Positions 2,976 to 4,874 of a stretch of DNA of 11,204 nucleotides are shown here, piece after piece (positions within the stretch are counted from its first letter, which is position 1; every line of letters begins with the position of its first letter). The DNA is taken from NCBI GenBank assembly GCA_000002435.2, contig AACB03000029.1; one strand, given 5' to 3'. Under the pieces are notes generated by a model. It was not told the DNA's origin, ran no database searches, and saw only the letters and a program-made list of their open reading frames with translations. The DNA comes from Giardia intestinalis (taxonomy: Eukaryota). The position numbers were made by a program, and so were the translations under genes.

Positions 2976-3000
2976 CTATCATACTATCACACACTATCAC
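2976..3000 (-). repeat. Junction J2: in-frame stop (2976-2978) plus three CTATCA(C) repeats at 2976, 2984 and 2994
   Basis: The plus strand reads 'ctccactatcatactatcacacactatcacccattg'. Confidence 0.75.
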
Positions 3001-3012
3001 CCATTGTATAGC

Positions 3013-3019
3013 ATTCACT
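3013..3019 (-). promoter_or_regulatory. Polyadenylation signal AGTGAAT for cassette C
   Basis: 'attcact' on the plus strand, 7 nt 3' of the stop at 3027-3029. Confidence 0.75.
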
Positions 3020-3026
3020 ACCCAAG

Positions 3027-4874
3027 TCACGCCTTCCCCCTGCACACGAACCACCAGCAGAGGAAGCCCACGAGGCCCCCCACGACAGCGATGACAGCCA
3101 CGGAGATCCCTGCTATGGCACCAGTACTGAGGCCGCTTCTGTTGCCCCCGCTGGGCTTGGTGGACACGCACGCCTCACCCTCCAGCCTGTAGTCGTCCCC
3201 ACACTGGCCGCACTTGTTCTCCTCGCTGCACCTGACGCACCCGTCGATATTGCAGGCGATGCACTTCGTTCCGTCTGTGTTCGGCCTCTGGTCTTTACTG
3301 GTACAGGCCTCGCACTTACCGCCTGCTCCACAGTGCGAGCATCCGTCAACGGTACATGCGAAGCACCCGCTCCCAGCCAGGTTGGGCTTGTTGTTGTTGG
3401 TACACGCTGTACACACAGCAGCAGTCATACCAGTCTCAGACAGAGCTGTTGGGGCCGTGCATGCCGAACAGCCATCTACCCCCACATATGCCTTAGAGGT
3501 ATCACCAGTGCCTACTAGTGTGCCAAGGGAGTTGCTACATGCCAATACAGACTGATTCTGATTGGTTGCCCCAGGGACTATGAAGTACCTATTGTTGGCA
3601 TTAACAGCGGTACAGACACCGTTGGCTGCTGTCTTGCACATATGTTGTCCAGGTACTGTATCAACCTTGTAACAACCTCCCATATACAAGAAGTAGTTGT
3701 TAGTGCATTGTGTACATACACCTTGATCACATTGATTATTTGCTTTAGCACTATTACACTTCCCATCTATAGGATACGTATTAGCTTCTCCACAGTATGA
3801 GCAATAATGATGCTCTACACCCTTATCATCAATCACTATTGCATCGCAGGCACCAGAAGTTCCTCCACAGGCAGTATCATCTTCACAGATCTTGGTGCAT
3901 GTGACAGAGCCAGTACTGCCCTCCTTGCGATAGTTAGGCTTACAGTCAGTGCACTTGAAAGCACCGTTGTTAGAGCAGACACTGCAGCCTTCGCGACCCT
4001 TATCGTCTACGCTATCGCATGGGACGCACTTCTTCCCCTGTTGATCTGTAGTAGTTACTAAGAAGTATCCAGTCTTGCAGGTTTCACACTTATTTGGATC
4101 ACCAGCAACAGAGCATGTGGCACAGTTATCACCACACTTGTCTGTACATGTACTAGTACCACTATCAAAGAAGTATCCATCGAGACAGGCTGAGCAGGTT
4201 GGATTGTCACTTCCTGTTTTCGTACATGTCTTGCAGTTGGCCTTTCCTTCGTTACCAAGAGTTGAATCTGTCACATCACTACAAAGAGCACACGTTTTGT
4301 CCTCCTTCATAAATAAGGCCTCGTCAGCGCCCTCGCATCCTTCAAGCGTCTTCGCCACGCAGGTCGATGTCCCGTCGAGGGCCGTCCTGGGGGTCTTATT
4401 GGTCCCGCAGTTAGTGCACTTCGGCTTCCCCGTGGCCTTGTCGAAGGAGCATGCCGTGCACTCTGCGTGTATCGTACTACATGCCTTGCATGTTCCCGAC
4501 TCCGGGTCAGCATACTTATCATTACCACAGCTATCAGTACATTGATTCCCATTGAGGTACTTCCCCTCTGGACACGATGTGCACTGGGTCGCCGATGTCT
4601 CACAGGTGGCACAGTTCCCCTCGCATGGCTTACAAAGCTTGTTGTTTAGGAAGTACCCCTCTTGACAGGTATTACACGTGGCAGGTCCTGCATTCCCTGG
4701 TGCCGTACACTTGAGACAGTTGGCCACTCCCGTATATCCATTCGCTCCCTTGATATCAGAGCACAAGATGCACTCCCCACCAGGAGTCACCTTGTCTGCC
4801 CTGTTCTGGAATATGTACTTGTTATCTGTCTTACAAGCAGTGCACAGTCCATTACTGGCCTTTGTACATATCAC
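3027..4874 (-). CDS. vsp: Variant-specific surface protein cassette C (615 codons in the ORF track). The track's 'M' is a GTG codon at 4872-4874. The real open frame starts at 4886 right after an in-frame TAG (4887-4889) and reads 'CDSGVICTKASNGLCTACKTDNKYIF...'. There is no ATG until about codon 190.
   Basis: CXXC-rich with GGCY in 'YMGGCYKVDTVPG'. It ends in '[17 protein letters not shown]'. Bases 3027-3420 are near-identical to 6747-7140 (the 3' end of cassette E). Bases 3482-4509 are near-identical to 8981-10008 (the core of cassette F). Confidence 0.85.
   Translation of the reverse strand: MICTKASNGLCTACKTDNKYIFQNRADKVTPGGECILCSDIKGANGYTGVANCLKCTAPGNAGPATCNTCQEGYFLNNKLCKPCEGNCATCETSATQCTSCPEGKYLNGNQCTDSCGNDKYADPESGTCKACSTIHAECTACSFDKATGKPKCTNCGTNKTPRTALDGTSTCVAKTLEGCEGADEALFMKEDKTCALCSDVTDSTLGNEGKANCKTCTKTGSDNPTCSACLDGYFFDSGTSTCTDKCGDNCATCSVAGDPNKCETCKTGYFLVTTTDQQGKKCVPCDSVDDKGREGCSVCSNNGAFKCTDCKPNYRKEGSTGSVTCTKICEDDTACGGTSGACDAIVIDDKGVEHHYCSYCGEANTYPIDGKCNSAKANNQCDQGVCTQCTNNYFLYMGGCYKVDTVPGQHMCKTAANGVCTAVNANNRYFIVPGATNQNQSVLACSNSLGTLVGTGDTSKAYVGVDGCSACTAPTALSETGMTAAVCTACTNNNKPNLAGSGCFACTVDGCSHCGAGGKCEACTSKDQRPNTDGTKCIACNIDGCVRCSEENKCGQCGDDYRLEGEACVSTKPSGGNRSGLSTGAIAGISVAVIAVVGGLVGFLCWWFVCRGKA
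3482..4509 (-). repeat. Near-identical block of about 1.0 kb shared by cassette C (3482-4509) and cassette F (8981-10008). Window start 1-655 equals 3855-4509. Bases 10895-11204 of cassette G equal 3482-3790 apart from indels.
   Basis: Direct comparison of the VSP core. Identity breaks at 3470-3480 versus 8960-8980 (AC-TAPTALSET versus QC-TAPAALTGA) and at 4510 versus 10009. Confidence 0.8.

Follow-up and report, generated by a model that had tools for sequence, protein, structure and literature searches.

What does the short repeat between the pseudogenes of a Giardia surface-antigen array represent: a working element, or a trace of how the array was made? Giardia carries about 200 pseudogenes of variant-specific surface proteins (VSPs), many of them in arrays, and these pseudo-VSPs may be either junk or a reservoir of new surface antigens. 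The question is raised by 11,204 nucleotides of Giardia intestinalis contig AACB03000029.1 (assembly GCA_000002435.2), referred to here as the window, which hold seven head-to-tail VSP cassettes (C1 to C7), all on the minus strand and two of them cut by the window ends. An earlier note, made from the letters of the window, had drawn attention to the six junctions between them (J1 to J6), among them J2, and had proposed several roles for the repeat that they contain. Our answer, to which we assign a probability of roughly 0.6, is that the junction forms the seam between repeat units of the array, in which a poly(A) signal, a possible relic of a VSP start and a slippage-prone minisatellite lie side by side. 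It is best read as a composite rather than a single functional motif, and the comparisons below make the repeat most likely an evolutionary scar and not a new control element. The conserved part of the junction is mostly the known VSP 3′ end, with its extended poly(A) signal, together with the abrupt start of a truncated cassette.

Anatomy of the seam

All six junctions were found on the minus (coding) strand where the earlier note had placed them, and they do share one architecture. Each consists, in order, of TGA, CTTGGGT (CTCAGGT in J3), AGTGAAT, GCTGTACAATG(T/G)G, TGATAG units and TGGAGTG(A/T)GATATGCACA; coordinates are collected in Table 1. Conservation, measured as mean pairwise identity in an alignment of the six junctions (A1), is 0.96 for the stop and poly(A) signal, 0.91 for the spacer, 0.79 for the repeat zone, which contains copy-number indels, 0.95 for TGGAGTGWGATATGCACA and 0.60 for the 28 nt of cassette that follow. 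The window contains 22 occurrences of TGATAG, 17 of them inside the six junctions; 5.6 ± 2.4 would be expected, and no shuffle out of 200 gave as many as 22. The TAG of the last J2 unit is the stop that opens the frame of the next cassette (C2), and each cassette frame opens right after such a TAG, as ‘*WSEICT...’ or WSVICT.... From the C2 start, ATATGCACAAAGGCTGAGGGAGGACTGTGCACTGCTTGTAAGACAG recurs exactly in the full-length VSP gene of another Giardia locus (L002).

The copy numbers proposed at the outset stand in part. J1 was credited with five copies at a strict 10-bp phase; four are strict, and the fifth is degenerate (TGATAT) and lies 13 bp off, with Tandem Repeats Finder reporting 4.3 copies at a period of 10. 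Three copies at 8-10 bp spacing were reported for the other junctions, which holds for J2, J4, J5 and J6 (10 bp, then 8 bp), except that the first unit of J3 is TGAATAG, with a 1-nt insertion. J3 also has a TGATAT at 4868-4873, just past the junction interval.

The first 17-19 nt of the junction (TGA plus ACTTGGGTAGTGAATGC), about a third of its length, are a known element. ACTTGGGTAGTGAATGC overlaps the stop codon and has one mismatch to ACUUAGRUAGURAAYRY, the extended poly(A) signal of VSPs, which is present in all 136 VSPs and has 323 of its 327 genome matches tied to VSPs and pseudo-VSPs (bioRxiv 10.1101/2022.03.07.483299). The initial identification of AGTGAAT as a 3′ processing signal was sound, as it fits both AGURAA (PMC9014877) and the extended VSP signal. 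In Giardia, cleavage is most frequent 13-15 nt from the AGURAA hexamer (PMC9014877). By these published hexamer-to-site distances, the transcript of the upstream cassette would be cleaved ~20-22 nt past its stop, in GCTGTACA^ATG and 8-10 nt before the first unit, so the repeats would lie just outside any mature upstream mRNA. The hexamer itself is AGTGAAT(GCT) at 13 of 13 array junctions and AGTAAAC(G) at 8 of 8 sampled stand-alone VSP 3′ ends. The array variant creates an ATG in AGTGAATG, the start codon of old WB annotations.

Downstream of this signal lies a decamer repeat, TGATAR plus NNGG, here written (GGGTGATAGA)n. The nine distinct junction sequences from the window and three European Nucleotide Archive (ENA) contigs contain one to seven copies. 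The core of the 35 units is TGATAG in 26, TGATAT in four (terminal units only) and TGATAA in three. Of 26 intervals between units, 15 measure 10 bp, five 8 bp and four 13 bp, and 11 and 17 bp also occur; the linkers AGGG, TGGG, AAGG, TGTG and TA follow one another in an order that varies among junctions. With head-to-tail units, copy numbers that vary between copies and a modal period of 10 bp, the repeat is a minisatellite, or variable-number tandem repeat (VNTR). Its variable copies and shuffled unit variants are the signature expected of slippage or out-of-register exchange, and the role of slippage-prone spacer, one of those first proposed, is thereby upheld. The decamer is apparently an undescribed detail.

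Each unit holds TGA and TAG in one frame, and the 10-bp period rotates that frame. The repeat zone contains six stops in a shared frame, and usually all three frames are closed, which we interpret as a by-product. A role in setting cassette phasing, which had also been suggested, is not supported: stop and cassette are 62, 63, 65 or 75 nt apart, in frame relations that vary among junctions. A strict three-frame stop trap or frame-phasing device was rejected on similar grounds, given that J5 keeps one frame open, spacers range over 62-75 nt and frame relations are mixed.

Recurrence of the seam in other arrays

The same junction architecture, with different cassettes, is present in contigs from three independent ENA assemblies (L125, L126, L128) that were obtained via VSP homologues. 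It is absent from ~89 kb of non-array Giardia DNA (L001-L004, L127, L129), which covers five full-length VSP genes with flanks as well as many non-VSP intergenic regions. The two outcomes that the earlier note had named as fatal to its proposal, absence from other VSP arrays and ubiquity in non-VSP intergenic regions, were therefore not encountered. At no place in the ~89 kb were three or more TGATAR clustered within 40 nt. The junction pattern of 25 specified bases had no match in prokaryote and viral collections, as expected; a metagenome scan with the 16-mer TAGTGAATGCTGTACA, a query too short for that collection, returned 120 unrelated single matches, none with VSP context; and a literature search for the motif returned unrelated primers only.

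The additional arrays differ from the window in copy number and in the point at which the VSP sequence is entered. In L125 and L128, four units follow one another at a strict 10-bp phase, and the last of them is fused straight into the cassette (AGGGTGATATGCACA). One 4-unit junction is common to these independent samples, and the copy variants are therefore not assembly noise. The 5′ end of L126 has seven units followed by an earlier VSP entry at GLLFIGGCYKTESQPGSEIC (~codon 85), and the same contig has a one-unit junction into a 70-codon C-terminal mini-cassette (position 1879). The entry points that follow the same module are thus WSEICT (window), ICT (L125, L128), GLLFIGGCY (L126 5′ end) and the C-terminal mini-cassette (L126). 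Array mini-cassettes of ~70-93 C-terminal codons, each with its own junction, lie at L126 1880-2147 and L128 1835-2116. Another cassette of L128 (P0075) ends at a premature TGA (1694-1696) in otherwise VSP-like sequence.

Related sequences were seen in assemblage B (GS). At L003 ~6006-6030 and L004 ~2800-2849, both on the minus strand, a single-copy TGTAT(G/AC)TGATAGTGCGTGGTGG lies upstream of FLFMGGCY-like remnants, which are fused ahead of VSP bodies that are otherwise full. A single head-to-tail spacer was seen in assemblage B (L003 8311-8420), and the TGATAG repeat is absent from it. The module may in part be older than the split between assemblages A and B.

Several existing gene models touch on these structures. 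The WB 2007 models P0004, P0010, P0030 and P0024 have N-termini MLYSDSDS(DS)AMWCGGDSGGVGLLFMGGCY, which are a translated array junction: a hexamer (AGTGAT)n form of the repeat, read from the ATG in AGTGAATG and leading to an earlier VSP entry point. These N-termini are likely annotation artefacts, and the models have since been reclassified as pseudo-VSPs (Xu et al. 2020, PMC7000408). A P15 ‘VSP’ (P0047, L129 9720-11791) is annotated from an internal methionine. Upstream of it, in frame, is a normal start CAATGTTGTTGATAGCG (MLLIALLF...), interrupted by TAG (EICT*CRAGG); this is therefore a nonsense-mutated full-length VSP and not an array member.

Origin of the seam and exchange between cassettes

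How might such a seam have arisen? The canonical VSP start, CAATGTTGTTGATAGC / ATGTTGTTGATAGC, is present in L127 and L129, and the vsp1267 primer ATGTTGTTGATAGCCTTCTATC carries it as well (PMC7066823). The first unit of the repeat, with the preceding CAATGTG, resembles CAATGTTGTTGATAGC, and the junction sequence CAATGTGTGATAG aligns to the VSP start CAATGTTGTTGATAG with two 1-nt gaps. At the other end, the last unit runs seamlessly into cassette codons (GTGATATGCACA). The module adjoins at least four VSP entry points, each of which resembles the unit (GGTGATAGT, AGTGAGATA, GTGATATGC). We propose that TGATAG in a vestigial start region was amplified by slippage, and that later deletions anchored by microhomology would have eaten into the 5′ end of the cassette. 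This route is favored because one module adjoins four unit-like entry points. An origin from the C-G-D-G-Y codons upstream of FLFMGGCY was also considered; it is plausible for the longer junction class but cannot explain a constant module across entry points.

The array would then have been shaped by exchange at the seam and around it. The junction and the conserved VSP 3′ end form an island of ~150 bp that is common to all junctions at 87-99% identity and is the sole sequence present in every unit. Identity is 95-98% over the full span for J2, J4, J5 and J6, 96-98% for J1 (from 1057) and 87-92% for J3. Since this island alone is common to all units, it is a likely substrate for unequal crossing-over, which would expand, contract and homogenize the array, and the variable cassette interiors may provide material for segmental gene conversion. 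Compared with itself, the window is a mosaic of tracts at 98-100% identity, with a higher-order period of two cassettes (~3.7 kb; J2-J4-J6), in which near-identical tracts of 512-895 bp cover J2, J4 and J6 whole. Such a pattern indicates that sequence was very recently duplicated or converted between cassettes that are not adjacent. The majority of tract ends lie 300-440 nt from a junction, and two sets of ends (1000/10353; 2899/6619/10312) lie 26-77 nt into the conserved first cassette codons (CTACKTANGLFKNP). Homology extends to intact genes. The full-length VSP of L002 holds the 45-nt start of the J2 and J6 cassettes exactly and that of the J4 cassette with one mismatch, and the L001 VSP shares a 918-nt tract with C5 at 90% identity. 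Arrays and intact genes share segments, and the shared homology is coding sequence, not the repeat.

Some observations do not sit easily with a seam that is only a scar. The resemblance to a VSP start is not significant window-wide (18, compared with a null maximum of 17.6 ± 1.9); the relic is suggestive only, and is kept for its location, exactly where a start would lie. The hexamer core is conserved far better than the first two linker bases (the NN of NNGG). The AGTGAAT-GCTNTACAATGNG-TGATAG module stays constant while the entry point varies, and it recurs in independent samples. Assemblage B loci have a single-copy TGTAYNNTGATAGTGCGTGGTGG upstream of FLFMGGCY remnants, which could be a sign of selection in addition to linkage with the conserved 3′ end. 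In addition, two of ~8 distinct tract boundaries lie within the opening 80 nt of a cassette, where ~0.3 would be expected by an estimate from the tract ends. This is a weak hint that exchange may be somewhat favored in the coding block beside the seam, and not in the repeat.

The earlier note had listed a recombination or conversion boundary element among the candidate roles. On such a reading, a TGATAG array at the 5′ edge of the cassette would promote or delimit conversion or crossover, either as homology or as a break-prone repeat. Several findings speak for this. The module was present at the 5′ edge of each of the cassettes examined (13 of 13 junctions of assemblage A type, nine distinct sequences), is kept though the entry points differ, and carries a repeat that is array-specific; J1 and J6 differ only in a short patch, comprising the proximal units and the first ~30 nt of cassette, between flanks of 97.7% and 99.9% identity; and the two boundary sets named above come within 26-77 nt of the repeat. 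The pseudo-VSP arrays of G. muris have also been proposed as donors of recombination or gene conversion for its few intact VSPs (PMC7641422). However, the tract map of the window places none of ~8 boundaries in the TGATAG zone, and three long tracts run through whole junctions. The repeat is likewise absent from the flanks and coding sequence of a small sample of five full-length VSP genes (L001, L002, L003, L127, L129), and therefore cannot supply homology on the recipient side. Degenerate decamers spanning 24-70 bp are short for homologous recombination, and VSP switching in Giardia is reported to occur without DNA rearrangement (PMC2996952). We consequently regard a dedicated recombination element as unlikely. 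A broader version is slightly more doubtful: by analogy with trypanosomes, the module next to the poly(A) signal, AGTGAAT-GCTNTACAATGNG-(TGATAR NNGG)n, might be a selected, array-specific boundary element of the cassettes, a counterpart of the trypanosome 70-bp repeats that is break-prone or protein-bound and would start exchange, conversion or antisense RNA over the VSP 3′ end. If this were true, pseudogene arrays would be mechanistically linked to antigenic variation.

A cis-regulatory role, which we consider no more probable than that boundary element, would have the phased, GATA-containing units bind a protein, one of the options in the earlier note, or the junction act as a loose AT-rich bidirectional promoter or terminator. 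Cassettes would thereby be insulated or silenced, or antisense RNA launched over the conserved VSP 3′ end, which could feed RNA-based VSP silencing. The well-conserved hexamer core and the 10-bp period, which sets most sites on one helix face, fit such a role, as does a junction GC content of 0.39-0.43 compared with 0.53 overall. Antisense transcripts exceed sense transcripts for most VSP genes (bioRxiv 10.1101/2022.03.07.483299), and Giardia promoters are reported as bidirectional, with abundant sterile antisense transcripts (PMC1885649). Yet spacing ranges over 8, 10, 11, 13 and 17 bp and copy number from one to seven, PyAATGTT, the VSP initiator, is missing, and a literature search yielded no GATA-type factor in Giardia. 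An AT-rich promoter island was rejected, as the junction is just moderately rich in AT and its GC content is not the minimum of the window. Nor was there sign of an RNA element at the junction, with no Rfam match and fold z-scores of +1.5, -1.2 and -1.95 in sense and ~0 in antisense; by inspection, runs of three G with short loops are too few for a G-quadruplex. It is very improbable that the junction is coding, with the repeat as a Ser-Asp leader translated from the ATG in AGTGAATG in the manner of the WB models that start MLYSDSDS(DS)AMWCGG. Three of these (P0004, P0010, P0030) do begin MLYSDSDS from an in-frame hexamer (AGTGAT)n form of the module, but they have no signal peptide and now count as pseudo-VSPs (PMC7000408). 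A 10-bp unit cannot code, and for the window a leader is essentially refuted by in-frame stops, as all frames from that ATG meet TGA or TAG within a few codons. Least credible is an assembly or sequencing artefact in a collapsed repeat. Although arrays are hard to assemble (PMC2996952) and the single-base indels of C7 could be read errors, independent ENA assemblies show the same architecture and even the same 4-unit variant, and J2, J4, J5 and J6 agree in the copy number and spacing of TGATAG.

Table 1. Coordinates of junctions, cassettes and shared tracts in the window.
Feature	Position	Strand	Description
J2 (junction followed up)	2976..3029	-	stop, extended poly(A) signal, spacer, three TGATAG units
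J2 stop	3027..3029	-	TGA of C3, after CRGKA
J2 extended poly(A) signal	3011..3027	-	ACTTGGGTAGTGAATGC; AGTGAA hexamer 3014-3019
J2 post-signal spacer	3000..3010	-	TATACAATGGG; predicted cleavage zone at hexamer start + 13-15 nt; initiator-like CAATGG (CAATGTG in J3-J6), no PyAATGTT match
J2 units	2976..2999	-	TGATAG at 2994-2999, 2984-2989 and 2976-2981; spaced 10 and 8 bp
C2 first codons	2958..2975	-	TGGAGTGAGATATGCACA = W S E I C T; align to P0001 residues 103-108
J1	1027..1103	-	units at 1068, 1058, 1048 (TGATAA) and 1038 in 10-bp phase
J1 TGATAT	1025-1030	-	overlaps ATG 1024-1026, in frame through a 1-nt insertion
J3	4881..4936	-	TGAATAG 4899-4905, TGATAG 4889-4894 and 4881-4886; poly(A) variant CTCAGGTAGTGAAT
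J4	6696..6749	-	three units, spacing as in J2 and J6
J5	8580..8633	-	three TGATAG units; TGATAT 13 bp past the interval
J6	10389..10442	-	three units
Homology island (one example)	8562..8714	-	last ~84 nt of upstream cassette, junction, ~18 nt of next cassette
C1	1..1026	-	cut at window edge; bases 1-1000 99.9% identical to 9354-10353
C2	1104..2975	-	624-codon open frame; no start codon or signal peptide; compensated frameshift near C-terminus
C3	3030..4880	-	617 codons
C4	4937..6695	-	broken, at least two frameshifts
C5	6750..8579	-	610 codons; 73% identical to full-length VSP P0001, beginning at P0001 residue 103
C6	8634..10388	-	585 codons
C7	10443..11204	-	frameshifted, cut at window edge
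Tract	1-660 = 3855-4514		100% identity
Tract	1-1000 = 9354-10353		99.9% identity
Tract	3465-4514 = 8964-10013		99.5% identity
Tract	2626-3410 = 6346-7130		98.7% identity; spans J2/J4
Tract	2899-3792 = 10312-11204		98.2% identity; spans J2/J6
Tract	6619-7130 = 10312-10823		99.0% identity; spans J4/J6

The array and its known relatives

The window is a ‘linear array’ of pseudo-VSPs, as described in the literature, from Giardia intestinalis assemblage A. Long VSP-like reading frames occur on the minus strand only. Six of them end in (V/I)CRGKA followed by TGA, at plus-strand coordinates 10440, 8631, 6747, 4934, 3027 and 1101, and all six complete 3′ ends encode a C-terminal transmembrane segment followed by CRGKA. 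The ectodomains are Cys-rich with CXXC motifs, and four complete cassettes match the Pfam VSP family PF03302 (E = 4e-33 to 2e-41); these matches and the CRGKA tails confirm the cassettes as VSPs, as first supposed. The nearest database proteins are Giardia intestinalis VSPs. For example, C3 from its first methionine is identical to the WB protein XP_001705784.1 (P0019) at 422 of 427 residues (99%). An origin in G. muris is excluded because the tails of the window read CRGKA and G. muris VSPs end in GCRGK (PMC7641422). The seven same-strand vsp units have stop-to-cassette distances of 62-75 nt, compared with ~60 bp (overlap to 241 bp) for arrays, and the downstream units have no initiator, proper start codon or signal peptide. 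Linear arrays have been described with ~60-bp spacers and with downstream members that lack the PyAATGTT initiator (Adam et al. 2010, PMC2996952).

Cassettes of the window begin at the equivalent of residue 103 of the full-length VSP P0001, so the first ~102 codons are missing, and with them the start, signal peptide and first Cys module. The first in-frame methionine lies 48-193 codons into the cassettes. No PyAATGTT initiator was found at the junctions, which carry CAATGTG or CAATGGG, and the ATG within these meets stops within five codons. Judged from their reading frames, the cassettes are pseudogenes, predicted to be silent, and some are frameshifted. The description of the next frame as leaderless and start-less was accurate, with the correction that the leftmost cassette, at J1, alone has an ATATGC ATG in frame. 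A 1-nt G insertion at 1000-1030 (ACAGGCAGCC compared with ACAGCAGCC in L125) brings this ATG into frame in C1 only. The resulting open reading frame (ORF) has at least 342 codons and starts MHRQPVMEWCTACK (MHRQPVMEW...); inspection found no hydrophobic leader or N-terminal signal peptide in it, and the in-frame ATG is probably accidental. The C-terminus of C2 (1104-1310) reads HQQERALHGAVAGISVAV, the usual sequence shifted and then restored, and the single-base indels of C7 could be real decay or long-read errors. On the plus strand, ORFs of 138-232 codons run antisense across junctions (916-1401, 2776-3192, 6496-6912, 8539-9054, 10269-10967); they probably arise because the antisense of Cys-rich coding sequence is poor in stops.

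The seam provides a compact, array-specific signature, made up of the AGTGAAT poly(A) variant, GCTNTACAATG and the variable decamer repeat. This signature could be used to delimit array units automatically in messy assemblies, or could serve as a VNTR strain marker. With respect to the idea of a reservoir, it marks the place to look for breakpoints of recombination or for transcription starts. Should the repeat be no more than a scar, which we judge most likely, its value would lie mainly in annotation and in the history of the array, as 5′-truncated VSP copies amplified by unequal exchange.

Published linear and pseudo-VSP arrays (PMC2996952; PMC7000408; Rodriguez-Walker et al. 2022 preprint) resemble the window closely, with head-to-tail units that have CRGKA tails, spacers of ~60 bp, the extended poly(A) signal, pairs of close relatives inside one array, and downstream members that lack PyAATGTT, a start codon and a signal peptide. 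As far as these array papers were searchable, no description of the spacer anatomy (the variable-copy decamer, its fusion to varied entry points and the AGTGAAT variant) was found in them. The telomeric pseudo-VSP arrays of G. muris likewise consist of tandem copies without start or signal peptide, although they are telomere-adjacent and their VSPs have the different ending noted above (PMC7641422). The decamer also has much in common with an ordinary minisatellite or VNTR, including short tandem units, copy differences among paralogous or independent copies, interspersed variants and a degenerate terminal unit. In contrast to such repeats, it is confined to one junction class of one gene family, and its unit has two stop codons.

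More distant parallels come from other antigen repertoires. Like the 70-bp repeats of Trypanosoma brucei variant surface glycoprotein (VSG) genes, the repeat of the window is short, imperfect and variable in copy number, and lies at the 5′ edge of silent antigen cassettes whose 3′ edge is a conserved gene end or untranslated region (PMC6893398). The expression site of T. brucei has the 70-bp repeats as well, and they mark the boundaries of conversion (PMC6893398). The Giardia repeat, by contrast, is absent from sampled full-length VSP loci and has no tract boundary inside it, and its unit is unrelated in size and sequence. In Pneumocystis, the major surface glycoprotein (MSG) genes are tandem silent antigen genes without promoter or leader. 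Each cassette starts with a conserved element, the conserved recombination junction element (CRJE), at which an expressed upstream sequence is joined on; the element codes in frame, and the expression site has it too. The Giardia repeat, in contrast, contains many stops and does not occur in the intact VSPs sampled. By this analogy, the conserved coding block F-L-F-M-G-G-C-Y ... S-E-I-C-T, which lies just downstream, would be a better Giardia counterpart of the CRJE.

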